A program made the position numbers and the translations under genes. From Heterodontus francisci (lineage: Eukaryota), in the NCBI RefSeq assembly GCF_036365525.1, contig NC_090371.1, positions 41,865,200-41,929,199 of the forward strand: a DNA stretch of 64,000 nucleotides, given 5' to 3'. The notes beneath the pieces are model-generated. The model did not search any database. It saw nothing but the letters and a program-made list of their open reading frames with translations, and had not been told where the DNA came from. Position 1 is the stretch's first letter. The number at the start of each line of letters is the position of its first letter. This document shows positions 9,301 to 55,380 of the stretch, one piece after another.

Positions 9301-10704
9301 GGGGCCCCAGCTGTTAGAACCATAGAACAATTAAGGCACAGAAGGAGGTTACTCAGCCCATCGTGTCAATACTGGCTGGAAAAACTAGCCGCCCAATCTA
9401 AACCCATCTTCCAGCACCTGGTCCATAGCCTTGCAGGTTACAGCATTTCAGGTACATGTCCAGGTACCTTTTAAAAGAATTGAGGGTTTCTGCCACCACC
9501 ATTCCTGGCAGCGAATTCCAGACACCCACCATCCTCTGGGTGAAAACGTTTTTCCCTCATGTCCCCTCTAATCTTGTTACCAATCACCTTAAATCTGTGT
9601 CCCCTAGTAAGTGACCTCCCCTGCAGGTGAAACAGGTCTTTCCTATCCATTCTATCTAGGCCCCTCATAATTTTGGACACCTCAATTAAGTCATCACTCA
9701 GCCTCCTCAGTTCCAGGGAAAACAACCCTAGCCTATTCAATTTTTCCTCATATCTGCAACTTTCAAGCCCTGGCAACATTCTTTTAAATCTCCTCTGTAC
9801 TGTCTCCAGAGCAATTATGCCCTTTCTGTAATGTGGTGACCAGAACTGTACACAATACTCCAGCTGTGGCCTAACCTGCATTTTATACAGTTCCAGCATC
9901 ACATCCCTGCTTTTGTATTCTATACCTCGGCCAATAAAGGAAAGCATCCATATGGCATCTTCACCACTCTATCCACCTGTCCTGCCACCATCAGGGATCT
10001 GTGGACATGCACTCCAAGGTATCTCACTTCTACCCCTCTCAATATCCTCCCATTTATTGTGTATTTCCTCGCTTTATTTGTCCTCCCCAAATGCATTAAT
10101 TCACTTCTCTGGATCGAACTCCATTTGCTACTTTCCCGCCCACTCAACCAAACCATGGATATCATTCTGGAGTCTACAGCTATCCTCTTCACTATTAACT
10201 ACATGGCCAATTTTTATGTCATCAGCAAATTTCCCAATCATGCCTCCCACATTTAAGTCCAAATCATTAATATATACCACAAACAGCAAGGGACCCAACA
10301 CTGAGCCCTGTGGAACACCTCTGAAAACAGCTTTCCATTCGCAAAAACATCCATCAACTATTACCCTTTGTTTCCTGTCCCTGAGCCAATTCTGGATTAA
10401 ACCTCCCACATTTCCCTGTATCCCATGAGCTTTCATTTTAGTGACCAGTCTGTCATATGGGACCTGGTCAAATGCCTTACTAAAGTCCATGTAGACCACA
10501 TCCACTGCACTACTCTCATCAATCCTCCCTGTCACTTCCTCAAAAAAACTCAATCAAGTTAGTAAGACATGACCTTCCCTTAACAAATCCATGCTGACTA
10601 TCCCTGATTAATCCGTGCAGTTTATCCTGTCTCAGAATTGATTCTAACAACTTACCCACCAGTCAGACTGACTGGCCTATAATTATTTGGCCTATCCCAC
10701 ACAT

Positions 10705-13700
10705 TTTTTAAAAAAAAATTCATTCATGGGATGCAGGTGTCACTGGCCAGGCCCAGCATTTATTGCCCATCCCTAATTGCCCTTGAGAAGATGGTGGTGA
10801 GCTGCCTTCCTGAACCGCTGCAGTCCATTTGGGGTAGGTTGACCCACAGTGTTGTTAGGAAAGGAGTTCCAGGATTTTGACCCAGCGACAGTGAAGGAAC
10901 GGTGATATAGCACCAAGTCAGGATGGTGTGTGACTTGGAGGGGAACTGGCAGGTGGTGGTGTTCCCATGTATTTGCTGCTCGTCCTTCTAGTTGGTAGAG
11001 GTCGTGGGTTTGGAAGGTGCTGTCTAAGGACCCTTGGTGCATTGCTGCATTGCATCTTGTAGATGGTACACACTGCTGCCACTGTGCGTCAGTGGTGGAG
11101 GGAGTGAATGTTTGTACATGGGGTGCCAATCAAGCAGGCTTCTTTGTCCTGGATGGTGTCGAGCTTCTTGAGTGTTGTTGGAGCTGCACCCATCCAGGCA
11201 AGTGGAGAGTAGTCAATCACACTCCTGACTTGTGCTTTGTTGATGTTGGACAGGCTTTGGGGAGTCAGGAGGCGAGTTACTCGCCACAGGATTCCTAGCC
11301 TCTGACCTGCTCTTGTAGCCAGGGTATTTATATGGCTACTCCAGTTCAGTTTCTGGTCAATGGTAGCCCCTAGGATGTTGATAGTGGGGGATTCAGCGAT
11401 GGTAATGCCGTTGAAGTCAAGGGGAGATGGTTAGATTCTCTCTTGTTGGAGATGGTCATTGCCTGGCACTTGCATGGCGCGAAGGTTACTTGCCACTTAT
11501 CAGCCCAAGCCTGGATATTGTCCAGGTCTTGCTGCATTTCTACACGGACTGCTTCAGTATCTGAGGAGTCACGAATGGTGCTGAACATTATGCAATCATC
11601 AGTGAACATCCCCACTTCTGACCTTATGATTGAAGGAAGGTCATTGATGAAGCAGCTGAAGACGGTTGGGCCGAAGACACGACTCTGAGGAACTCCTGCA
11701 GTGATGTCCTAGAGCTCAGATGATTGACCTCCAACAACCACAACCATCTTCCTTTGCGCTAGGTATGACTCCAGCCAGCAGAGGGTTTTCCCCGATTCCC
11801 ATTGACCTCAGTTTTGCTAGGGCTCCTTGATGCCATACTCGGTCAAATGCTGCCTTGATGTTAAGGGCAGTCACTCTCACCTCACCTCTTGAGTTCAGCT
11901 CTTTTCTCCATGTTTGAACCAAGGCTGTAATGAAGTCAGGAGCTGAGTGGCCCTGGCGGAACCCAAACTGAGCGTCACTGAGCACCTTATTGCTAAGCAA
12001 ACGCCACTTGATGGCACTGTTGATGACACCTTCCATCACTTTACTGATGATTGAGAGTAGGCTGATGGGGCGGTAATTGGCCGGGTCGGACTTGTCCTGC
12101 TTTTTGTGTACAGGATATACCTGGGCAAATTTCCACATTGCAGGATAGATGCCAGTGTTGTAGCTGTACTGGAACAGCTTGGCTAGGGGTGCAGCAAGCT
12201 CTGGAGCACAGGTCTTCAGTACTATTGCCGGAATATCGTCAGGACCCATAGCTTTTGCAGTATCCAGTGCCTTCAGTCGTTTGTTGATATCATGTGGAGT
12301 GAATCGAATTGGCTGAAGTCTGACATCTGTGATGCTGGGGACTTCAGGAGGAGGCTAAGATGGATCATCAACTCGGCACTTCTGGCTGAAGAATGCTGCA
12401 AATGCTTCAGCCTTTTCTTTCGCACTGATGTGCTGGGCTCCCCCATCTTTGAGGATGGGGATATTTGTGGAGCCACCTCCTCCAGTTAGTTGTTTAATTG
12501 TCTACCACCATTCACGGCTGGACGTGGCAAGACTGCACAGCTTAGATCTGATCAGTTGGTTGTGGGATCACTCAGCTCTGTCTATTGCATGCTGCTTATG
12601 CAGTTTGGCATGCAAGTAGTCCTGGGTTGTAGCTTCACCAGGTTGACACCTCATTTTGAGGTATGCCTGGTGCTGCTCCTGGCATGCCCTCCTGCACTCT
12701 TCATTGAACCAGGGTTGGTCTCCTGGCTTGATGATAATGGTAGAGTGGGGGATATGCCAGGTCATGAGGTTACAGATTGTAGTTGAGTACAATTCTGCTG
12801 CTGCTGATGGCCCACAGCGTCTCATGGATGCCCAGTTTTTCATTGCTAGATCTGTTCGAAATCTATCCCATTTAGCACGGTGATAGTGCCACACAACACG
12901 ATGGACGATATCCTCAATGTGAAGGCGGGACTTCGTCTCCACAAGGACTGTGCGGTGGTCACTCCTACCAATACATTCATGGACAGAAACACCTGCGGTA
13001 GGCAGATTAGTGATGACGAGGTCAAGTATGTTTTTTCCCTCGTGTTGGTTCCCCCACCACCTGCCGCAGACGCAGTCTGGCAGCTATGTTCTTTAGGACT
13101 CGGCCAGCTCGGTCAGTAGTGGTGCTGTTCAACATGGAGGAGTACTGAGTCATCAGCTGAGGGAGGGCAGTAGGTGGTAATCAGTAGGAGGTTACCTTGC
13201 CCATGTTTGACCTGATGCCATGAGACTTCATGGGGTCCAGAGTCAATGTTGAGGACTCGCAGGGCAACTCCCTCCCTACTGTATACCACTGTGCCACCAC
13301 CTCTGGTGGGTCTGTCCTGCCGGTGGGACAGGACATACCCGGGGATGGTGATGGCAGTGTCTGGGACATTGGCTGTAAGGTATGATTTCGTGAGTATGGC
13401 TATGTCAGGCTGTTGCTTGACTAGTCTGTGGGACAGCTCTCCCAACTTTGGCACAAGCCCCCACATGTTAGTAAGGAGGACTTTGCAGGGTCAACATGGC
13501 TGGGTTTGCTGTTGTTGTTTCCGATGCCTAGGTCTATGCCGGGCGGTCTGTCTGGTTTCATTTCTTTTTATTGACTTCTTAGCGGTTCAGTACAACTGAG
13601 TGGCTTGTTAGGCCATTTCAGAGGGCATGTAAGAGTTAACCACATTGCTGTAGGTCTGGAGGCGCACGTAGGCCAGACCAGGTAAGGACAGCAGATTTCC

Positions 13701-13903
13701 TTCCCTAAAGGACATTTGTGAACCAGATGGGTTTTTACAACAATCGACAATGGTTTCATGGCTATCATTAGACTAGCTTTTAATTCCAGATTTATTACAT
13801 TCAAATTCCACCTTCTGCTGTGGTGGGATGCGAACCCATGTCCCTTGAGAAATGCCCTGGGTCTCTAGGTTACTAGTCCAGTGATACCAACACGCCATCG
13901 CCT
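10705..13903 (-). mobile_element. Apparently full-length, single-ORF CR1-clade LINE (APE+RT, no ORF1) with a tRNA-derived 5' head; this copy is inactivated
   Basis: APE: KVLLTNMWGL, PDIAILTKS, RQDRPTRGGG (13113-13490). RT: GPDDIP, NYRPISLLSIISKVME, QFGFR, IKAAFDRVWH, GVPQ, MFTDD. Stop at 10773. 5' end has A box TGGCGTGTTGG (13897-13887) and B box GGTTCGCATCC (13836-13826). Imperfect flanking duplication GCCTATCCCACACAT / GCCTACCCCGACAT. Confidence 0.88.
13826..13897 (-). promoter_or_regulatory. Internal type-2 RNA polymerase III promoter (A and B boxes) in the tRNA-like head
   Basis: The three heads (13903, 14003, 43224) give a consensus near TGGCGTAGTGG...CTGGACTAGTAATCCAG...GGGTTCRAATCCCACC, with an anticodon-like stem-loop and a long variable arm. 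Confidence 0.8.
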
Positions 13904-14002
13904 ACCCCGACATCCTTTTGAAAACAATGGTACAACGTCCGCAGACCTCCAATCATCTGGTACCTCCCCTGTATCTAGTGATGATTTGAAGATGATCCTC
14001 AG

Positions 14003-14108
14003 AGGTGGTGGCATAGTGGTAATGTCACTTGACTAGTAATCCAGAGTCCAGATTAATACTCTGGTGACATGGGTTCAAAATCCACCACTGCAGATGAAAT
14101 TTAAATTT
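14003..14108 (+). mobile_element. Isolated tRNA-like head of the same LINE/SINE family, fused to an HE1 SINE
   Basis: GGTGGTGGCATAGTGGTAATGTCACTTGACTAGTAATCCAGAG...GACATGGGTTCAAAATCCACCACTGCAG is homologous to 13903-13800 and 43224-43135. Confidence 0.8.
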
Positions 14109-14432
14109 GGGTGGCACAGTGGTTAGCACTGCTAGCCTCACAGCTCCAGTGACCCAGGTTCAGTTCTGGGTACTGCCTGTGCGGAGTTTGCAAGTTCTCC
14201 CAGTGACCGTGTGGGTTTCTGCCAGGTGCTCTGGTTTCCTCCCACAGCCAAAGACTTGCAGGTTGATAGGTAAATTGGCCATTATAAATTGCCCCTAGTG
14301 TAGGTCGGTGGTAGGAGAATGGTGGGGACGTGGTGGAGAATATGGGATTAATGTGAGATTAGTATAAATGGGTGGTTGTTGGTCGGCACAGACTTGGTGG
14401 GCTGAAGGGCCTATTTCAGTGCTGTATGACTG
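14109..14432 (+). mobile_element. HE1-like V-SINE
   Basis: GGTGGCACAGTGGTTAGCAC head, V-domain, and tail GGGCTGAAGGGCCTATTTCAGTGCTGTATGAC. Confidence 0.92.
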
Positions 14433-21738: not shown

Positions 21739-22851
21739 TCAGTTAATGGGAACAGTTTTTCCGTGTCTAACTTATCTAAGCCTGTTAATCTTGTACACCT
21801 CTATCAAATCTCCCCTCAATCTCCTTTGCTCCAGGAAGAACAAACCCAGCTTTCCCAACCTAACCTTGCAACTAAAATCCTCCATCCCTGGAACCATTCT
21901 GGTAAATCTGCACACTCTCTCAAGTACCCTCGCAGCCTCCTAAAGTGTGGTGACCAGAGCTGGTTGCAATACTGTAATTGGGGCCTGACCAGAGCTTCAT
22001 AAAGGTTCAGCATAACTTCCCTGCTTTCGTACTCGATGCCTTTATGAAGCCCTTGATTCCATATGCTTTGCTAACCACTATCAATATGTGCTGCCACCTT
22101 CAAAGCTCAATACACATGCATGCCCAGGTCTCTCTGGTCCTGCACACTCTTTAGAACTATGCCATTAAGTCTATGTTGCCTCACCCTATCCCTTCAGCTG
22201 AAATACATCACCTCACACTTCCCTGTATTAAATTCCATCTTCCACTTGCCTGCCCATTTTCCTAGCCTATCTATCTCCTGTTGCAAGCGGTTTGTATCAT
22301 CCTCACTGTTTGCCACTCCAAGTTCAGTATCAGCAAATTTTGAAACGCTGCTCTGTAATCCAAGATCAAATTCATTTACATATAGCAAAAAAAGCAGCGG
22401 TTCTAGTGCTGACCCTTGGGGAACACTACTGTCTACTATCCTCCAGTCTGGAAAAACAACCATTTACCGCAACTCACTGTTTTGTCCTAAAGCCAATTTT
22501 TAAAAATCCAATTGAACACTGACCCTCCTATTCCATGAGCCTCAATTTTATCAAAATCCATATAGACATCAACTACGTCCCCTTCAACAACCTTCTGTTA
22601 TTTCATCAAAAAATTCAATTAGATTAGTCAAGCATGTTCTGCCTTTCATAAATCCATGCTGGCTCTCCTTAATTAACTCAAACCTCTCTAAGCGTCTGTT
22701 GATATTTTCCCAATTGTTGCTTCTAAAACCTTACCCACCACTGATGTTAAACTAATTGGTCTGTAATTACTAGGAATGAACATACATCCATTCTTGAATA
22801 AGTGTGTCACATTTGCCACTCTCCAGTCCTCTGGCACCTCCCTCATATCTT

Positions 22852-23113
22852 TTAGAATTAGAATTAGAACATTACAGCGCAGTACAGGCCCTTCGGCCCT
22901 TGATGTTGCGCCGACCTGTGAAACCATCTGACCTACGCTATTCCATTTTCATCCATATGTCTATCCAATGACCACTTAAATGCCCTTAAAGTTGGCGAGT
23001 CCACTACTGCTGCAGGCAGGGCGTTCCACACCCCTACTACTCTCTGCGTAAAGAAACTACCTCTAACATCTGTCCTATATCTATCACCCCTCAACTTAAA
23101 GCTATGTCCCCTC
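22852..23113 (-). mobile_element. Short young CR1 3' end with (TTCTAA)n tail
   Basis: RGHSFKLRGDRYRTDVRGSFFTQRVVGVWNALP; plus-strand tail TTAGAATTAGAATTAGAAC. Confidence 0.85.
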
Positions 23114-24000
23114 ACTATGTCATCTAGTGAAGATTGGAAGATTATGGCAAGACCTTCCACTATTTCCACCCCCACTTCCATTAGCAACCAGAGATGAAAG
23201 CCATCCAGACCAGGTGACTTATCTACCCTAAACATAGCCAGCCTTTTCAGTACCTCCTCCCTCAATTTTTACCTTAATCATTGCCTTTACTCTCTCCACT
23301 AACGATATTTCGTCATATTCCTCTTCCTTAGTAAACACCGATACAAAGTATTCTAGCGTTGCCCTGCATCTCTAAGCATTTATTACCCTCTTTGTTACTA
23401 ACAGGCCCACTCCACCTTTTACTACCGACTCACTATTTACATGCCGGTAGAACATTTTTGGGTTCCTTTTACATTGACTGCCAGTCTGTTCTCATATTCT
23501 CTTTGCCAATCTTATTTTCCTCTCCATCTCCTCTCTCAATTTACTGTATTTGGTCTGGTGCGCACTTGGTGAACTCACCTGGACATGCATCTACACCCTC
23601 TTTTTTTGTTTCGTGATCTCCATCTTCCTCATCATCCAAGGAGCCCTGTTTTTGGTTCCCCTACATTTTGCCCATGTTGGAATGTACCTAGCCTGCACCT
23701 GAATCAACTCTTCTTTAAAGATAACCCATTGTTCCATTACAGTTTTCCTGTCAGCCTTTGGTTCCATTTTATCCTGTCTAGATCATCGCATTGAAATTAG
23801 CTCTCTTTCAATCTAGCCATTGCTTTTCCACATTGAGTCTAAACTTTTTGATACGAAGATCACACTTAGCTAAGTGCTCCCCGACAGACAGTCCACTTTG
23901 GCCCATCTCATTCCCCAGCACCAGATCCAGCAATGGCTCCTCTTCAATTAGGTTGAGAACATACTGATCAAGGAAGTTTTCCTGAACACAACCGAGAAAT

Positions 24001-25939
24001 TTCCCCCTCAAATCTAAATCAGGGGAGATAATCACTGACCAACACAAACAAATGGACCGCTGGGTTGAGCACTACCTAGAACTGTACTCCAGGGAGAATG
24101 TTGTCACTGAGACCGCCCTCAATGCAGCCCAGCCTCTACCAGTCATGGATGAGCTGGACATACAGCCAACCAAATCAGAACTCAGTGATGCCATTGATTC
24201 TCTAGCCAGCGGAAAAGCCCCTAGGAAGGACAGCATTATCCCTGAAATAATCAAGAGTGCCAAGCCTGCTATACTCTCAGCACTACATGAACTGCTATGC
24301 CTGTGCTGGGACGAGGGAGCAGTACCTCAGGACATGCGCAATGCCAATATCACCCTCTATAAAAACAAAAGGTGACCGCGGTGACTGCAACAACTACCGT
24401 GGAATCTCCCTGCTCAGCATAGTGGGGAAAGTCTTTGCTCGAGTCGCTCTAAACAGGCTCCAGAAGCTGGCCAAGCGAGTCTACCCTGAGGCACAGTGTG
24501 GCTTTCGTGCAGAGAGATCGACCGTTGACATGCTGTTCTCCCTTCGTCAGATACAGGAGAAATGCCGTGAACAACAGATGCCCCTCTACATTGCTTTCAT
24601 TGATCTCACCAAAGCCTTTGACTTCGTCAGCAGACGTGGTCTCTTCAGACTACTAGAAAAGATTGGATGCCCACCAAAGCTACTAAGTATCATCACCTCA
24701 TTCCATGACAATATGAAAGGCACAATTCAAGATGGTGGCTCCTCATTAGAGCCCTTTCCTATCCTGAGTGGCGTGAAACAGGGCTGTGTTCTCGCACCCA
24801 CACTGAGATTTTCTTCTCCCTGCTGCTTTCACATGCGTTCAAGTGCTCTGAAGAAGGAATTTTCCTCCACACAAGATCAGGGGGCAGGTTGTTCAACCTT
24901 GCCCGTCTAAGAGCGAAGTCCAAAGTACGGAAAGTCCTCATCAGAGAACTCCTCTTTGCTGACGATGCTGCTTTAACATCTCACACTGAAGAATGCCTGC
25001 AGAGTCTCATCGACAGGTTTGCGTCTGCCTGCAATGAATTTGGCCTAACCATCAGCCTCAAGAAAACGAACATCATGGGGCAGGACGTCAGAAATGCTCC
25101 ATCCATCAATATTGGCGACCACGCTCTGGAAGTGGTTCAAGAGTTCACCTACCTAGGCTCAACTATCACCAGTAACCTGTCTCTAGATGCAGAAATCAAC
25201 AAGCGCATGGGAAAGGCTTCCACTGCTATGTCCAGACTGGCCAAGAGAGTGTGGGAAAATGGCGCACAGACACGGAACACAAAGGTCCGAGTGCATCAGG
25301 CTTGTGCCCTCAGTACCTTGCTCTACGGCAACGAAGCCTGGACAACGTATGTCAGCCAAGAGTGACGTCTCAATTCATTCCATCTTCGCTGCCTCCGGAG
25401 AATCCTTGGCATCAGGTGGCAGGACCGTATCTCCAACACAGAAGTCCTCGAGGCGGCCAACATCCCCAGCTTATACACACTACTGAGTCAGCGGCACTTG
25501 AGATGGCTTGGCCATGTGAGCCACATGGAAGATGGCAGGATCCCCAAAGACACATTGTACAGCGAGCTTGCCACTGGTATCAGACCCACCGGCCGTCCAT
25601 GTCTCCGCTTTAAAGACGTCTGCAAACACGACATGAAGTCCTGTGACATTGATCACAAGTTGTGGGAGTCAGTTGCCAGCGTTCGCCAGAGCTGGCGGAC
25701 AGCCATAAAGACGGGGCTAAAGTGTGGCGAGTCGAAGAGACTTAGTAGTTGACAGGAAAAAAGAGAGGTGCAAGGGGAGAGCCAACTGTGTAACAGCCCC
25801 GACAAACAAATTTCTCTGCAGCACCTGTGGAAGAGCCCGTCACTCTAGAATTGGCCTTTATAGCCACTCCAGGCGCTGCTTCACAAACCACTGACCATCT
25901 CCAGGCGCTTATCCATTGTCTCGAGATAAGGAGGCCAAA
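24001..25939 (+). mobile_element. 5'-truncated RTE-clade LINE (RT plus C-terminal C2H2-like finger)
   Basis: NYRGISLLSIVGKVFARV, EAQCGFR, FIDLTKAFD, GVKQGCVLAP, LLFADD, FTYLGS, RWLGHV..MEDGRIPK; GAGAAAT on both flanks (23994-24000 and 25940-25946). Confidence 0.95.
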
Positions 25940-33844: not shown

Positions 33845-35130
33845 CAAAGGAACACAAGAAATAGCATCAGGAATAAACCATTCAGCCCTTCAAGCCATTC
33901 AATATGATCTGGCTGATTTGCTGCCTTAATTCCACCTTCCCCGATCGCTCCAGAGGTCAAAAATCTGTCCATCTCAGCCTCAAATATACTCAATGATGGA
34001 GCACCCACAACCATCAGAGGTAGACAATTCCAAAGAATCACAACACTGTGAAAGAATTCCTCTCACCTCAGTCCTAAATGATCAACCCCTTATCCTGAGT
34101 TGTATCTCCATGTTCTAGGTTCCCCACCGAAGTGAAATAACCTTTGATTACCTTGTCAAACGTCTCAGAATATTAGATTTCAATGAGATCACCTATTCTT
34201 CTGAACTCAAGGGTATATAGGCCTTATCCCAGGAACCGATCTACTGAACTTCACTGCACCTCCTCCGATGCAAGTACATTCATCCTTAGAGATGTAGATC
34301 AAAACCGTGCATAGTACTCCAGCTATGGTCTCACCAAAGCCCTGTAACGAATGTAGCAAGACTTCCTTATTCTTGTACTCCAATCCCCTTGCACTAAAGG
34401 CCAACATGCCAGTTGCCTTCCTAATTGCTTACTGGGTGTTCCTTGCACAGATACACCCAAGTGTCTCCGAACATTTAAAAGTTTCATGCTTTTTAAAAAA
34501 AATTGTTCTTACTGCCAAAGTGTATAACCTTACACTTCCCCACATTATACTCCATCTGCCACCTTGTTGTCCACTCACTTAACCAGTCTATCTCTTTGCA
34601 GCCTCTTGCATATGTACTCCTCACAGCATACATTCCCAACTAGCTTTGTATTGCCAGCAAACTTGGATACATTACTCTCAGTCTGATCAATTAAGTCATT
34701 AATATGGATTGTAAATAGCTAAGGCCCAGCACTGATCTTTGGGGATCACCGGTCACAAACTGTCAACTTGAAAATTTGCCTTTTGTCTCTGCATCCTGTC
34801 CATTAACCAATCATCCATTCATGCTAATATATTACCCGCAACTCCATGAGCCCTTATCTTGTGTATTAATTTTGTGTGGCACCATATCAAATGCATTTTG
34901 GAAATCCAAGTACTGTTTCCCCTTCAGCACCCTACTAGTTACATCCTCGAACTGGAACAAATTTATCAAACACTTTCTCTTTTGTAAAACCACCTTGACT
35001 GTCTGATCATACAATGATTTTCCAAGTGCATTAAGACTTCCTTAATAGATTTCAGCATTTTCCCCAATGCTAACTGGCCTTAGTTCCCAGTTTTCTCTCT
35101 CCCTTTCTTGAATAGTGGTGTTAGTTTGCT
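33845..35130 (-). mobile_element. Decayed CR1 LINE 3' portion
   Basis: YLDFQNAFDMVPH, MLAFSARGLEYKNKEVLL, LWNCLP, then the tail. Confidence 0.85.
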
Positions 35131-39554: not shown

Positions 39555-40389
39555 ACAATAACTGGCATTTATACAGCACCTATAATGTAGAAAAACATTC
39601 CACTGTTGGAGAAAAATTGGATGACCAGCCAAAAGCAGGAAGTTAGGAATGGTAACCAAAAGCTTGGCCAAAGAGGTGGGTTTAAGGAGGAACTTACAAA
39701 AAAAAAGGTGAAGAGGTGCAAGGAGAACCCAGAGCAGGAGGCCTAGTTGGCTGCAGGAACAACTGCCAATGGTGTGAAGGGAGGGACAAATCACAAGAGG
39801 CCAAAAACAGGAAGAATGAATTTTTGGGGGAAGTGGTTTATAGCACTGAAAATGCTCTGGAGAGAGAAACAAGGTTAACATTGCAGGTCATGATTCTCTG
39901 TTCCTCTCTCCAAAGATGCTACCTAACTTGCTGTGTATTTCCACCATTTTCTGCTTTTAATTAGGAAAAGTCCAGCCTTAGAGGGATTTAAAAATGACTT
40001 TTAAATTTGAGGCACTGTGGAACGGAGTCATTGTAGGGTGAACAAACACAGACTGAGTGGGACTTAGTGTGAGGTAAGATTGAGCAGAGATTTGAATGAG
40101 CTCAAGTTTATGGAAGATGGAAGGCCAGCATTGAAATAGCAGAGTCTGGAGGTGACAAAGTATGGATAAGGGGTTCAGCAGCAGATGGACTGGAGGAAGC
40201 AGATGGCTTTTGTGATAGAAAGGATACGAGGTTGGAAGCTCAGCTTGGTGTCAAATACAATGCTAAGATCGGGAACAGTCTGGTTCTGCCTGAAACGGGC
40301 TGAAGAGGGAGGGGAAGCGTCAGTGGCAGGGGTAGTGCTGAGACTGAAGATGGTGACTTTGCTCTTAATGATTTGCTGGAGGAAATTGT
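39555..40389 (-). mobile_element. Decayed L2-type LINE, interrupted by a Penelope-like hairpin (about 39845-39962); small continuation at 41043-41070
   Basis: ORF 40175-40426 (NFLQ....KVTIF, NQTVPDLSIVFDTKLSFQPRILSITKA) resembles 4135-4330; L2 tail at about 39560-39700. Confidence 0.75.
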
Positions 40390-41042
40390 GGGCTGATTTT
40401 TGTGAAGATGGGGGTCCCAGCAGCAAGTTGGAAGCTGGGGAGAGACCATGACAGCCTTCCGTCAGACCCCCAGTGCAGTTTCACTCTGGGCAGGCAATTA
40501 ACTGCCCATCGGGGACACCTTCCCTTCAAGAGACTAACTCCCACCTAGAGAGCTGCTGGCCAATCGGAGGGTCAGCAATGCCACTGAGAGTAGTGGTGAC
40601 TGCCAGTACTGCAGAAGGCCCTGCAGCAGCCAAGAATTCAGAGACCCCAGGAGGGGCAAGTGGGGTCGGGGTTGCCAGGCAGGCCCCAGCAATGGGGTGG
40701 TGGCCATCACTGCCAGGGCCCTGGATTGTCCCCGAAGGAGGTACCTCCACAGACCCTGCAAGGAGGCCGCCAGGTTTTACCTGGTGGCAGCAGGCCCCTC
40801 CGCCTTCTAACAAATTGAGGCGGATGCGGGAAGAAGCCTCTAAGTGGCCACCAATTTGTCACCTAACAGCCTCAATTGGCCTGGGCAGGAAGGCCATTCT
40901 CTACCTTCCCTATCCCAGACTAAATTGGATATCGTCAGGAACGCAACGGGCACTCCACCCCCCGCCTTCCAGTGCAATTTTATATGAGCCCCCCACCCCC
41001 CACTTCCTTTCTCGTGCCAAGGGGGCCCATAACATTCAGCCG
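40390..41042. mobile_element. GC-rich non-autonomous DNA transposon (MITE-like)
   Basis: Imperfect terminal inverted repeats GGGCTGATTTTT (40390) and AACATTCAGCCC (41031-41042). It interrupts the L2 sequence, which resumes at CTCATCCAAGACTGGA. Confidence 0.6.
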
Positions 41043-41997
41043 TGTCTCATCCAAGACTGGACGTCAAACAGTTTCCATGGCCTTGCTCACATCTCTAACC
41101 TACCTCACACTACAGTAACTCCTCCAAACTTCACATTCATTAGACACTGGCCTCAAGAATTATCCCCTCCTGTGTGCATTCCCTGCATTTCCCCCACCCT
41201 TCCAAACAAATCAACACACCAAGCTCTTGAATTCCCTTTCTGCTTAGTTGTAAACACAAAAACTGCTTTAGAGGGCATAGCTAAGGTATTACTTGGCATC
41301 TGTCTTAACCAAGGAAGAAGATGCAACCCAGGCAATGTTGAAAGAGGAGATAAGTCAGACTAGAGGGGTTTAAAATTGAAGAGGAAGTATTAGATAGGCT
41401 GTCTATGCTTAAAGTGGATAAGACACCAGATGAGATGCATCCAAGGATACTGAGGGAAGAGAGGGTGGAAATTGCAGAGACACTGGTCATAATTTTTCAG
41501 TCTTCCTTAGACTCGGGGGGTAGTGTCAGAGGACTGGAGAATTGCAAACGTTACACATTTGTTCAAAAAAAGGGTGTGAAGATAAGGCCAGCAACTACAG
41601 GCCAGTCAGTTTAACTTCATTGGTGGGAAAACTACTCGAAAAGTAATTTGGGACAAAATCAATAGTCACATGGACAAATGCGAGGTAATTAAGGAAATCC
41701 ATGCTGGCCTTCCTTAAGGGAAAAGCATGTTTAACTAACTTGGAGTTTTTTGAGGTGGTAACAGAGGGTTGATGAGGGAAATGCTGTTGATGTGGTGTAC
41801 ATGGACTTTCAAAAGGCATTTGATACAGTGCCACACAACACACTTGTGAGCAAACTTGTAGCTCATGGAATAAAAGGGACGGTAGCAACATGGATATGAA
41901 ATTGGCTGAGTGACAGGAAACAAAGTAATGGTTAATGGATGTTTTTCGGACTGGAGGAAAGTCTGTAGTGAAGTTCTGCAGGGATCAGTGTTAGGAC

Positions 41998-42830: not shown

Positions 42831-43224
42831 TTTTTAAAAAAAATTCATTAATGGGATGTGGGCATCGCTGGCCAGGCCAACTTTTATTGCCCTTGAGAAG
42901 GTGGCAGTGAGCTGCCAACTGAGTGGCTTGCTAGGCCATTTCAGAGGGCATATAAGAGTCAACCACATTGCTGTGGGTCTGGAGTCACATGTAGGCCAGA
43001 CCAGGTAAGGACAGCAGATTTCCTTCCCTAAAGGACATTAGGGAACCAGATGGGTTTTTACAACAATCAACAATGGTTTCATGGCCATCATTAGAATAGC
43101 TTTTTTTTTTTAAATCCCAGATTTACTAATTGAATTCAAATTCCACCTTCTGCTGTGGTGGGATTTGAACCCATGTCCCCAGAGCAATACCCTGGGTCCA
43201 GTGATAATACCACTACGCCACCGC
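42831..43224 (-). mobile_element. tRNA-headed SINE made of the 5' (about 310 nt) and 3' (about 85 nt) ends of the 10705-13903 LINE
   Basis: 43224-42917 aligns to 13903-13594 and 42916-42843 aligns to 10806-10719. A box TGGCGTAGTGG, B box GGTTCAAATCC. Confidence 0.92.
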
Positions 43225-43784
43225 AAGTACTTGAAGATTTAAAGTATTTGGTAAGAGAAGCAAAAGTGACATGAGGAAAAACTTTTTCACGTAGCGAGTG
43301 GTTAAGGTCTGGAATGCACTGCCTGAGAACATGGTGGAGGCATGTTCAATTGAAGCATTCAAAACGGGAATTAGACAGTTAGATGAAAAGGAAGAATGTG
43401 CAGGGTCACGGGGAGAAGGCGGGGCAATGGAAGTAAGGGAATTGCTTTTTCGGAGAGCTAATGTGGACATGGGGCGAATGGCCTCCTTCTACACTAACAA
43501 TTCTGTGAAATGGTCAAAAGCAACCACCTGTAGTCAGCAGAATGCATTATCTATAAACCACTTACATAGGGAACTTATATAATGTTTAAAATTTATCTAT
43601 ATTGCAATTCAAACACTTGCTACTATCCTGTGTATTAAAACTGTTACTATTAAGTCATGGCTTCCCATCTATTAGTACAAAGCTGAATTTACTGGGAAGA
43701 ACCATCAATCTTGGGTCCCTGGTGGCAGAATTACCATTAATACCCTAACATAACTGTACATCACTTAATGCGATTTCACTTTTG

Positions 43785-49840: not shown

Positions 49841-52800
49841 TTTTTTTTAATTTGTTCATGGGATGAGTGTGTCACTGGCTGGGCCAGCATTTATTGCCCA
49901 TCCCTAATTGCCCTTGGTGAGCTGCCTTCTTGAACTACTACAGTCCATGTGGGGTAGGTACACCCACAGTGCCGTTAGGAAGGGAGTTCCAGGATTGTGA
50001 CCCAGCAACAGTGAAGAAATGGTGATAGTTCCAAATCAGGATGGTGTGGGGCTTGGAGGGTAACTTGCAGGTAGTGGTGTTCCTATGCCTCTGCTGCCCT
50101 TGTACATCTAGGTGGCAGACGTCACGGGTTTGGAAGGTGCTGTCTAAAGAGCCTTGGTACGTTGCTGCAGTGCATCTTGTAGATGGTACACACTGCTGCC
50201 ACTGCGCGTCAGTGGAGGAGAGTGTGAATTTATGTGGATGGGGTGCTAATAGGAACATACGAAGATAGGAACAGGAGTAGGCCATTCAACCCCTCGAGCC
50301 TGTCCCGCAGCCCAACTCCATATACCTGCCTTTGGCCCATACCCCTGAATATCTTTGCTTAACAATAACCTAAGACTTAAAATTAACAACCGTTCTAGCT
50401 TCAACTGCTGTTTGTGGGAGAGAGTTCCAAATCTCTACCACCCTTTGCGAGAAGTGCTTCCTAACATCTCTCCTGAACGGTCTGGTCTTAATTTTTAGAC
50501 ACTGCCCCCTAGTTTTAGAATCTCCAAGCAGTGGAAATAGCTTATCTTCATCTAGCCTGTCTTTTCCTGTTAATATCTTGAAGACTTCGATCAGATCACC
50601 CATTAACCTTCTAAATTCTAGCGAAAACAAGCCTAATTTGTTTAATGTCTCCTCGTAACTTAACCCCTGTAGTCCAGGTATCATTCTTGTAAACCTACAT
50701 TGCACTCCCTCCAAGGCCAAACTATCCTTCCTAAGGTGTGGTGCCCAGAACTGCTCACAGTACTCTAATTGGGGTCTAACCAGGGTTTTGTACAGCTGCA
50801 GCATAACCTCTGTCTTTATACTCCAATCCTTTAGATATAAAGGCTAGCATTCCATTAGCCTTTTTGATTATTTTCTGCACTTGCTCGCAGCATTTTAAAG
50901 ATCTATGCACCTGAACCCCCAAGTCTCTTTGGACATCCACTATACTTAACCTCTTCCCATTTAGAAAGTACCCTACTCTATCCTTTTTTGGTCCAAAATG
51001 GATAATCTCACACTTGCCCGCATTGAAATCCATCCGCCACAGTTTTGCCCACTCACCTAGTCTGTCAATATCTCTTTGCAATTTTATGCTATTATCTAGA
51101 ATGTCTACAATGCCGCCTAACTTTGTATCAGCAAATTTGGATATATGACTTACTAGGCCATCATCCAAGTCGTTAATGAATAATGTGAATAATTGAGGCC
51201 CCAACACAGATCCCTGTGGGACACCACTAGTCACATTCTGCCAATTGGAATACTTAGCCATTATCCCCACTCTGTCACCTACCACTCAACCAACTTCCTT
51301 ACCATGTCAATAATTTGCCCTCAACTCCATGGGCTTCGACCTTAATTAACAGTCTCTTGTGTGGGACTTTATCAAATGCCTTCTGGAAGTCCATATAATT
51401 AACATCCATAGAATTCCCCTGTCCACTACCTTAGTCACCTCATTAAATTTTTTTGAAGAGATTTGTCAGACATGACCTTCCAGTTCCAATCCATGCTGGC
51501 TGTCCCTGATCAATTGAAATTTTTCTAAGTGTTCAGTCACCCTATCCTCGATTATAGATTCCAGCAACTTGTCCACCACAAATGTTAGTCGAACTGGTCT
51601 GTAATTTCCTTGGTTCCCCCCTTCACCCTTAAAAAGCAGAATGACATGTGCAACTTTCCAATCCAGAGGGACCACTCCTGAATCTAGGGAACTCTGAAAG
51701 ACTATAGTTAAGGCATCTACAATGTGCTCCCCTACTTCCTTTAACACCCTCGGATGGAAACCATCAGGTCCTGGAGATTTCTCACTCTTTAGTTCCATTA
51801 ATTTCCTTATGACTGATGTTTTACTTAGCTTAATTATATTAAGTCCCTGTCCCCCATCAGCTATAATTTTTTCAGGACTTCCGGCAAGTTATCCTCCTTT
51901 TCAACTGTATATACTGAAGAAAAGTAATTGTTCAATATGTCTGCCATTTCCCCATTATCAACGACAATATTTCCAGTTTCAGCTTTTAGTGGGCCTACAT
52001 TGCTCTTGGCCACCCGCTTTCCCCTTATGCAACTATAAAATTTCTTCTTATTGATTTTGATGTCCCTTGCAAGTTTCCTTTCATAATCTCTTAGTAGCTC
52101 TTATAATCTGCTTTGACACCCTTTGCTGGTCTTTGTATCGATCCCATTCAGCTGGATCTGTGCTGCGCTTTGCATTTTTCTGAGCCCTTTCTTGTTGTTT
52201 TATGCTATCCCTAATCTCTTTAGTTGTCCAAGGCTGTTTGTGAAGTGGAGCTTTTTCCTCTCTGGTATATACTCGCTCTGTATTTCGTTAAATGTTTCTT
52301 TAAATATTCTCCACTGTGCTTCAGTCGTTTGACCCATTAACAGATCTACCCAGATACCGTGGACAGTCTGTCTTATCCAGTAAAGTCAGCCTTACCAAAG
52401 TCCAAAATTCTAGTAGCTGATTCCTGCTTTTCACTTTCAAACGCTACCTTGAATTCAATCATGTTGTGATCACTATTTGATAAATGTTCACGAACAGTTA
52501 GGCTACTAATTAAATTTGGCTCATTACTCATAACTAAATCTAATATTGCCTGTCCCCTTGTTACATCTAGGACATATTGCTGTAGGAAACTATCCCGGAC
52601 ACATTCCAGAAATTCACCACCTTTCTGACAGGTGCTAGTCTGCCTCTCCCAGTGGGTAAGTTAAAATCCCCCATTAATACTACTCTGCCTTGGTTACACA
52701 CTTGCCTAATTTGTGCATTTAACACCTCAGAACTGCTACCGGGGGTCTATACACAACACCTATTACAGTTTTAGATCCTTTTCTGTTCCTCAATTCCACC

Positions 52801-55015
52801 CATAAGGTCTCCACTGGATGCTTTCCCCTCATTATATCCTCCCTCACCAATGAGGTGATATTATTTCTAATCAGTAAGGCTACTCCACCCCCTCTGCCAT
52901 TTTCCCTGTCCCTCCTGTAAACTTTATAACCGGGTATATTTAGTTCCCACTCCCGACCGTCCTGCAGCCATGTCTCTGCAATGGCCACATCATAATCTTC
53001 CATTTGAATTTGCACCTGCAGCTCATCTAGTTTATTCCTTACACTCAGTGCATCTGCATATAGAACACTTATTTGGGCTATACACTCTAACCTGTCCCTC
53101 AGCACTGATGCTTTATTCACTGCTTATCAGTTCTCTCTTCTGGTTTAACCAGTATACTTCTTGCAGTTTGATAACTATCAGCCTCACCACTAACCTGCAT
53201 TCTTACCTTCTCCTTTAGCTTCCTGTTTTTCCATGCAACTGAACCCCGCCCCCCACTATTTAGTTTAAAGCCCAATCTACAGCCCTAGTTATGCAATTCG
53301 CCAGGACTCTGGTCCCAGCAGGATTCAGGTGGAGCCCGTCCCGTCGGAACAGCTCCCTCCTTCCCCAGTACTGGTGCCAATGTCCCACGAATTCAAGCCC
53401 ACTTCTCCCACACCAATCTTTGAGCCATGCATTTACCTCTAATCTTATTGACCCTTTTCCAATTTGCTCGTGGCTCAGGTAGTAATCCGGAGATTACCAC
53501 CTTTTTGGTTCTGCTTTTTATTTTAGCCCCTAGCTGCTCATATTCCCTCAGCAGAACCTCTAACCTCGTTCTACCTATATAGTTGGTACCTACGTGGACC
53601 ACGGCAACTGGATCTTTCCCCTTCCTGGACTCCAAGTTCCTCTGCAGCCCAGATGAGATATCCCGAACCCTGGCACCAGGTAGGTATGAGAGCCTTCGGG
53701 ACTCTCGATCCTGGCCACAGAGAACAGTGTCTATGCCCTTAACTATACTATCCCCGATTACGACTACATCTCTTTTCTCCCCCCACTTGAATGGCTCCCT
53801 GTACCACGGTGCTGTCGTCAGTTTGCTCATCCTCCCTACAGTCCCTGCTCTCGTCCACACACAGAGCAAGAACCTTGAACCTGTCTGACAAGGACAATGG
53901 CTGAGGCTCCTGCAGCACTACCTCAGAGATCCCTCTACCTGCCTCAGTCACACTCTCCTGTCCCTGAGCACTGGCCGAATTCACAGCAGTTAATCTAAGG
54001 GGTGTGACTGCCTCCTGAAACACAGCATCCAGTTAACTCTCCCCTCCCTGATGTGTTGCTGTGTCCGAAGCTCAGACTCCAGCTCATCAACTCTGAGCCA
54101 GAGTTCCTCGAACAGCCAACACTTGCTACAGAGGTATTCACCAGGAACCACGATGGGGTCCACCAGCTCCCACATCATGCAGGTACAACACATCACCTGG
54201 CCCTGCAGCTCTACTTTATATAATTAGATTTTAAATTTGTTATTTAAATTTCCGAATGTTTTTTTTTTAAAAAACCACTTTAGTCTATATACTTATAAAT
54301 CAATCAAGTCTTACTCTATGTTGATTAAATTACCTGAATACTGACCCCAGCTGCATTCTGTTTCCCTACTCTCACTGTTCAATGTGATGGGCTGCTTTGT
54401 TCTGGATAGCGTCGAGCTTAGAGTGTTGTTGGAGCTGCACCCATCCAGGCCAGTGGAGACGATTCCATCACATTCCTGACTTATGCCTTGTAGATGGTGG
54501 ACAGGCTTTGGGGAGTCAGGTGGTGAGTTACTCGCCACAGGATTCCTAGCCTCTGACCTGCTCTTGTAACCACAGTATTTATATGGCTGGTCCAGTTCAG
54601 TTCAGTTTCTGGTTAATGGCAAGCCCCAGGATGTTGATAGTGGGGGATTCAGCAATCACAATGCCATTGAATGCCAAGGAGAGATGGTTAGATTCTCTCG
54701 TTGGAGATGGTCATTGCCTGGCACTTGCGTGGCGTGAATGTTACTTGCCACTTATCAGCCCAAGCCTGGATATTGTCCAGGTCTTGCTGCATTTCTACAC
54801 AGACTGCTTCAGTATGAGAAGTTACGAATGGTGAATATTGTGCAATCAGCAGCGAACATCCCCACTTCTGACCTTATGATTGAAGGAAGGTCATTGATGA
54901 AGCAGCTGAAGATGGTTGGGCCTAGGACACTACCCTGAGGAACTCCTGCAGTGATGTCCTGGAGCGGAGATGCTTGACCTCCAACAACCACAACCATCTT
55001 CCTTTGTGCTAGGTG
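49841..55015 (-). mobile_element. Second, 5'-truncated copy of the tRNA-headed LINE family (own sequence 49841-50249 and about 54388-55015), split by a full-length CR1
   Basis: 49850-50249 aligns to 10719-11130 and 54388-55015 aligns to 11135-11770 (GVPQGSVLGPTIFSCFINDLPSIIRSEVGMFAADC). Confidence 0.9.
50250..54385 (-). mobile_element. Essentially full-length decayed CR1 LINE: 5' UTR, ORF1 (zinc finger/leucine zipper plus SGNH esterase), ORF2 (APE+RT)
   Basis: CCTCMMW...CSKC..(L-x6)n at 53990-54196; GDSIVKG, PGARV.D, HVGTN, ISGLLP at 53393-53869; IAETWL, GGGVALLI, VYRPP at 52719-53120; RT at 50370-51798. Confidence 0.93.
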
Positions 55016-55380
55016 AGACTACATTGTGGCGTATCAACAAAATCACAAGTAATTTTTTAGTTGAAAATACTTAAACAAAATTCCCTTGTATGGGTATGTC
55101 TCAAATTCTAATTTTAAACCTCACCACAAATTTGACAGGGAAGAATATTGTGAAGAGGGCAACTGATTTTGGTATTTTTATTTCACTGCTTACAAACAAA
55201 TCAAGTAAGCTTGAATGTCAGTGCTATTCTGTCGGAGAATGCCGGCACAGATATGATTGGCCAAGTGGCCTCTTTCTGTGCCATAAACATTTTTTGATTC
55301 TATTAACCAAAGCTCTGCTTTTCAATTTGTAATGGTGAAGGCACCTTATAACTGAAGCTGGATCAGTGCTAGGTTGGTCT

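Follow-up and report, generated by a model that had tools for sequence, protein, structure and literature searches.

A bipartite tRNA-headed SINE of Heterodontus francisci whose partner LINE bears the same head and looks fitted to RNA polymerase III

Two related elements on the minus strand

The window, that is, the whole stretch of DNA analysed, comprises 64,000 nt of Heterodontus francisci (NCBI RefSeq assembly GCF_036365525.1, contig NC_090371.1, forward-strand positions 41,865,200 to 41,929,199), and all positions below refer to it. Its minus strand carries two related elements, a long one at 10704–13905 and a short one at 42831–43224. The long element is a 3.2-kb LINE with a single ORF for an APE endonuclease and a reverse transcriptase (RT). 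From its 5′ end it is composed of a tRNA-like head (13808–13905; A box start 13898; 2 + 1 box mismatches), a leader matching the body of the short element in sequence (13594–13807), a linker absent from the short form (13482–13593, holding one arm of an inverted repeat at 13581–13590), the broken ORF (10773–13481, with the second arm at 10810–10819 and no run of T≥4 on the sense strand) and a 3′ UTR (10704–10772) with AATAAA (10764) followed by T9 and A6. The ORF begins about 110 nt past the body, which leaves no ORF1. This copy is dead, with stops, frameshifts and about 30 endonuclease codons missing relative to homologs; its leader holds 11 ATGs, none of which opens into the ORF frame, and the two in-frame leader ATGs nearest the endonuclease are closed by stops. 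AATAAA hexamers at 13796 and 13572 of the leader (minus strand) could shorten a Pol II transcript. A decayed target-site duplication of 18–20 nt (minus strand, 13900–13919, partner 10690–10709) was scored as high by 17/5000 random segments, and by 119/5000 if the A run was left out; as it brackets head and tail, it speaks for their having been inserted together rather than lying side by side by chance.

The short element is a bipartite tRNA SINE, and its partner LINE bears the same head. It consists of a tRNA-like head (43139–43224, A box start 43220), a body (42917–43138), a tail with the last 10 codons of the ORF and the 3′ UTR with its AATAAA (42844–42916), and an end reading T8 then A5 on the sense strand (42831–42843). 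Scored against what we take to be the A- and B-box consensus, both head boxes are perfect (0 + 0 mismatches), one of only two A + B pairs at ≤1 mismatch in the whole window, and with both boxes intact the element contains no internal run of T≥4. It sits within a CR1 3′ fragment, the two halves of which align with other CR1 copies, and about 10 extra nt (43225–43234) separate its 5′ end from the point where the CR1 host sequence resumes. The score of a target-site duplication for the short copy was at chance level (3076/5000 random segments as high), and Rfam returned no gathering-level match, with three chance-level matches for the short copy.

Three further pieces of the family lie in the window: a 5′-truncated copy of the LINE (49849–50250, minus strand; 347/399 identical; A-tailed, without a T run), an internal fragment (54390–55023, minus strand; 573/627 identical; sense strand without TTT) and a third head (14002–14107, plus strand; 77/96 identical to the long head), after which no body or tail was found. 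Searches of the window with nhmmer accordingly gave three heads for the 5′ module (43224, 13905, 14002) and three tails for the tail (42916, 10806, 49949). All three heads begin within a few bases of a tRNA-type start, 7 nt before the A box, and the family head presumably resembles a tRNA-Ser with a long variable arm. The head at 14002 was called as a tRNA by ARAGORN, and its alignment to RF00005 scored 16.7 bits, below the gathering score of 29. It lies head-to-head with the long element at a distance of 100 nt and ends about 15 nt into the body; directly after it stands a repeat (14109–14300, three other copies in the window) that differs from the family and that we take to be an HE1-like V-SINE. 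Of the family tails, 2/3 have the 3′ T tract, which may be the product of an A tail that decayed later. Private deletions of 11–15 nt between short direct repeats (49915–49925, 43190–43200, 42885–42895) recur in family copies and suggest slippage-prone RT or microhomology repair. Elsewhere, a broken RT ORF pair at 24251–25365 (plus strand), unlike CR1 and unlike the long element, is presumably RTE-like.

The junction, other loci and the affinity of the LINE

On the plus strand, 42916 of the short copy (10806 of the long element) directly abuts 42917 (13594 of the long element), as the first-pass annotation had described; one G common to both sides leaves the join ambiguous by 1 nt, and the skipped LINE stretch, put there at about 2.8 kb, is 10807–13593 (2787 nt). 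That head, body and tail are all LINE-homologous was borne out as well (70/79, 197/212 and 60/71 identical, gaps excluded), including the 5′ part, for which a lack of homology to the LINE leader had been considered. By blastn, 42916–43198 matched 13593–13863 at 88% over 283 columns (E 1e-102), and the tail matched at E 5e-13. The 5′ + 3′ structure of a deletion form thus stands, whereas the description of it as exact does not, as the short copy has small private indels: 15 nt are missing from the head, and with them the anticodon loop, a further 14 nt are missing from the tail, each gap is flanked by short direct repeats, and the body is about 12 nt longer than the counterpart in the long element.

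Other loci were reached by protein search with translations of the leader, and the 11 distinct proteins obtained were mapped back. Four run from the body into the linker or endonuclease (P0123, P0124, P0125, P0128; P0123 and P0124 are gene models and may be spliced, and the body overlap of P0125 is only about 8 residues), three from the body into the tail (P0126, P0130, P0131), three contain head and body only (P0127, P0129, P0132) and one contains linker and endonuclease only (P0122). Since the body continues into linker or ORF at four other loci, a long form with the body is not unique to the window locus. The earlier worry that headed long elements might exist only at this locus therefore holds for head and ORF together, which were found in 0/11 protein records and seen at the window locus only, and not for body and ORF. 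A second-frame protein search returned only P0128, already in the query, and the DNA of the 5′ module had no match in plasmids, phages and GTDB genomes.

The short form is present as one copy in the window and as three further translations with another 3′ breakpoint. P0126, P0130 and P0131 leave the body at the same point as the window copy (within a codon) and enter the tail 7 codons (21 nt) later, with the 3′ breakpoint defined by explicit alignment gaps for P0126 and P0131 and read from the last residues for P0130. The junction tally that had been proposed to tell recurrent deletion from an amplified SINE thus gives a fixed 5′ breakpoint, but at least two 3′ breakpoints, 21 nt apart, and the combination argues for a family that was amplified and comprises at least two variants of the junction; birth by one deletion, as first worded, is too simple.

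Among the best 120 of 636 matches to the RT protein, three exceeded 60% identity, all of them pieces in gene models of Mobula, Scyliorhinus and Heptranchias; the others lay at 35–55%, those with names coming from lancelet, crab, beetle and Lepidoptera (three lepidopteran proteins at 42–45%). No teleost was named among these best 120 of 636, which is weak evidence on the horizontal transfer that the first-pass annotation had raised, most matches carrying no name. RT pieces of the long LINE in the shark and ray gene models P0004, P0095 and P0119, one anoctamin-7-like and one cystathionine beta-synthase-like, are probably annotation artefacts or exonised copies. In a tree of 41 rows, built without any named Zenon reference, the long element grouped with the Mobula, Heptranchias and Scyliorhinus pieces at 100/100, apart from the CR1 of the window, with deeper forks open. 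To our knowledge, Zenon has no ORF1. The long element has a single endonuclease-RT ORF, its length fits the range of about 3.1–3.7 kb given for CR1-Zenon in Table 1 of PMC6740152, and CR1-Zenon-like LINEs were reported from whale shark (bioRxiv 10.1101/443036). It is on tree neighbours, length, single ORF and the whale shark report that we call the long LINE CR1-Zenon-like.

Loss of T runs from the sense strand

Pol III terminates at T≥4 and in part at TCTTT, TATTT and TGTTT (PMC8466645). The sense strand of the long element contains no run of T≥4 in 3176 nt, compared with 5.1 expected from base content (P 0.006), and the two other LINE fragments (402 and 634 nt) likewise contain none; among further fragments in the window, six of CR1 have 3.3–8.0 such runs per kb and one of RTE 1.8. 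When the TTTT-free stretches of both window strands were compared (405 on the plus strand, 464 on the minus strand), the longest was 10719–13920 (3202 nt), coextensive with the element, and the next measured 1602 nt. Other TTTT-free stretches of 1.3–1.6 kb are LINE-like (52667–54268, 22729–24212 and 39995–41257, all minus strand), the first of which overlaps an ORF at 53393–53917 that we take to be CR1 ORF1 esterase-like.

Under a codon-aware null in which third positions were resampled, runs of T≥3 numbered 8 vs 20.0 (0/4000 draws as low) and runs of T≥4 numbered 0 vs 2.95 expected (P 0.036). Against two nulls that retain the bias under test, depletion of T≥4 was not significant: P was 0.083 for a dinucleotide shuffle and 0.055 when the codons of the element were permuted. 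The antisense strand was as expected (19 vs 20.8), and runs of A, C and G in the long element stood at 0.68–1.22 of expectation.

Controls were drawn from 171 confirmed LINE relatives in GTDB genomes, of which 80 loci were kept; their DNA seems to stem from invertebrate hosts or other eukaryotes. The 171 RT stretches, found in bacterial and archaeal genomes and many of them in a few symbiont MAGs, are most likely host DNA. ORF blocks ≥1.5 kb were available for 64 relatives, and all of these blocks contained runs of T≥4, at a median of 6.1 per kb and a minimum of 0.35. With the long element as the sixty-fifth block, it had the lowest observed/expected ratio for TT, TTT, TTTT, TVTTT, TTVTT and TTTVT, measures that are correlated, with many controls coming from few hosts, and the control relatives are mostly T-richer than the long element. 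The relative with the minimum (L002, 40–2892) has a low T content and one run of T≥4 in 2.85 kb, and its contig ends too near the ORF start to show a head. The 5′ module matched 0/80 relatives; A and B boxes at ≤3 mismatches were found in 0/30 relatives with ≥300 nt upstream (best 4, vs 3 in the long head); and ARAGORN called no tRNA in the 54 of 80 relative loci scanned, a result of little weight because the program also misses 2/3 window heads.

Two other causes of the T-run loss were rejected. Avoidance of self-cleavage by the endonuclease would affect both strands, and the antisense strand is normal; low Phe content does not apply at 0.023 vs a median of 0.027, with 18/63 homologs as low. 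Judged by its sequence, the partner LINE looks fitted to Pol III.

Origin of the short form and comparison with known elements

The first-pass annotation had offered two directions, deletion from the LINE or capture of an ORF by a SINE. The short tail starts 1 nt ahead of the ORF's final 10 codons, a stretch that ends the C-terminal motif of the LINE ORF, and this motif aligns in 16/16 relatives aligned. With its start inside these codons, the tail is LINE-derived, and this coding origin makes a deletion from the LINE the better fit of the two, ahead of an ORF captured into the interior of a SINE. Insertion of a LINE into a SINE was rejected, as the long copy is not followed by a second tail, and the tail it shares with the short copy is its own ORF end. 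The inverted repeat held by linker and ORF is a perfect one of 10 bp, its arms lying inside the two breakpoints at a distance of 3 nt. A repeat of this length arises between 30-nt windows drawn at random from the element with P about 7e-4; the present one was spotted post hoc and is shown in one copy. The leader-end and ORF-end regions form a duplex of −26.7 kcal/mol. This suggests that the RT skipped looped-out RNA. A second perfect inverted repeat, of 12 bp, joins 13054–13065 (endonuclease region) and 10957–10968 (3′ part of the ORF).

We lean towards an account in which a CR1-Zenon-like LINE of elasmobranchs, once it had taken up a tRNA promoter, could be transcribed by Pol III and shed the SINE by internal deletion. 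More tentatively, sharks and rays may host an autonomous coding LINE that Pol III transcribes over its full length via a captured tRNA promoter, that has a coding sequence cleared of Pol III terminators and that yields ready-made SINEs by a single structure-guided deletion. On the account we lean towards, a single-ORF CR1-Zenon-related LINE would have acquired a tRNA-derived 5′ end, we infer by template switch, the A and B boxes of which would recruit Pol III transcription from the first base. The observed depletion of terminator-like T runs would reflect their purging from the whole sense strand, by which Pol III would be able to read all 3.2 kb. The RNA would end beyond AATAAA at the 3′ T/A tract and be copied by target-primed reverse transcription; the leader end would pair with the ORF end, and the RT, skipping the loop, would join body to tail. 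As the deletion product would already have a promoter and a tail recognised by the RT, it would be a working SINE at birth, and its amplification with later small deletions would give the junction variants. Translation of an uncapped RNA could proceed by internal initiation, or the protein could come from Pol II read-through of other copies.

The strongest alternative, which we consider rather unlikely but a serious contender, follows the Kojima model of bipartite SINEs: a headless Pol II LINE gave a deletion derivative of 5′ UTR and 3′ end, which then received the tRNA head; the long copy with a head would be a rare chimera, made as the RT passed from a LINE template RNA to a SINE one within the 224 nt of body that both have in common. 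Precedents exist in Bov-tA and others (PMC5786205) and in Persaeus, derived from Zenon (PMC6740152). The model predicts all other loci, with body and ORF (4), head and body (3) or body and tail (3), and calls for no translation of Pol III RNA; a chimera, too, would have a target-site duplication, so that every structural observation is accounted for. Where it fails is on the T runs alone, as it does not predict a strand-specific loss across 2.7 kb of coding sequence and three copies that is extreme among 65 blocks; in addition, the sole full-length copy in the window bears the head.

It is improbable, in our judgement, that an older SINE of tRNA head and body came first, swapped its tail with the long LINE and later lent head and body to it. 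The body has no match in the 80 invertebrate-type relatives, as this order of events would have it, and if the salmonid SINE-type repeats that the first-pass annotation named as very similar do contain the body, the module may predate the long LINE. However, the capture point would have to hit the body/tail boundary exactly, there being no tail sequence in the leader, and the body has none of the Deu, Meta and UCON3 core motifs, so that no known ancient body is at hand. Module exchange as such is common among SINEs (PMC4824008, PMC5499810). It is very improbable that the short copy belongs to no SINE family and arose here from an inserted long copy that suffered a single deletion: its 3′ breakpoint does lie 21 nt off those of three other short forms, and family copies do bear private deletions between short repeats, but a 5′ breakpoint within a codon of the other short forms is unlikely for an independent DNA deletion.

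Non-LTR retrotransposons are described as using Pol II, with LINEs transcribed by Pol II, SINEs by Pol III, and Pol III elements being short (PMC10886601). If the account we lean towards is true, this LINE/SINE polymerase rule would fail for a Pol III-fitted coding element of 3.2 kb, a one-step route of SINE birth would replace head-plus-tail assembly, and the question would be posed of how an uncapped Pol III RNA gives reverse transcriptase. Strand-specific T-run loss would offer a simple screen for other Pol III-fitted LINEs. If the chimera model is right instead, a bipartite tRNA SINE from a clade beyond RTE and Vingi would still be at hand.

Core motifs of known SINE superfamilies, taken from the supplement of PMC7245038, were compared with the window. 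The 14-nt Deu core had no match at ≤2 mismatches, which at the level of this motif, rather than of the SacSINE1 consensus, speaks against a DeuSINE or SacSINE1. A MetaSINE, suggested by a tRNA-Thr call and a salmon member, is marked by a 66-bp Meta domain directly after the head; the 17-nt core gave one match with 3 mismatches at 34498, outside the element and at chance level, and this assignment was rejected. The 13-nt UCON3 core gave two matches, both outside the element, with 2.5 expected. SacSINE1 and the DeuSINEs of sharks are tRNA-headed and of similar size (PMC5499810, PMC4824008), but the SacSINE1 tail is reported as L2-2_CM-like (PMC5499810), whereas the tail here comes from the end of the long element's ORF; SlmI is tabulated with tRNA-Leu and RSg-1 (PMC3747384). 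A literature search, outside Repbase, Dfam and SINEBase, returned no tRNA-headed or Pol III-transcribed shark LINE; an entry for the family may already exist in such a database.

Pol III-type promoters in retrotransposons other than SINEs are described for TRIMp3 elements (Cassandra, Helenus, Ajax), which, unlike the long LINE, are non-autonomous LTR elements of 0.3–1.3 kb (PMC10886601), and tRNA-like sequence in a LINE is described for RTE-1_DAn and relatives, of another clade and host (PMC5786205). The T+ SINEs (B2, Dip, Ves) share AATAAA, T tract and A tail with the elements described here, but are mammalian, L1-mobilised and non-coding, whereas here about 40 nt separate AATAAA from the T tract, which is present in 2/3 tails (PMC8466645).

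Closest in architecture are internal-deletion derivatives. The view that bipartite derivatives are known for RTE-type elements proved too narrow, as Persaeus, a SIDE of Lepidoptera, is likewise a 5′ + 3′ internal-deletion derivative, with several breakpoints, of a CR1-Zenon of about 3.3 kb; in contrast to the short and long elements here, both tRNA-headed, it is described with neither tRNA homology nor a Pol III promoter (PMC6740152). Bov-tA, AfroSINE, CoeSINE4 and SINE2-1_EC share with the short element the order of tRNA head, LINE leader and LINE 3′ end (PMC5786205). As set out in that source, bipartite SINEs are reported for RTE and Vingi only and received the head after the deletion. A typical bipartite SINE/SIDE would have a head that its autonomous partner lacks, or no head at all, as in Persaeus; here the partner is CR1-group-like, and its one full-length copy in the window bears the head.
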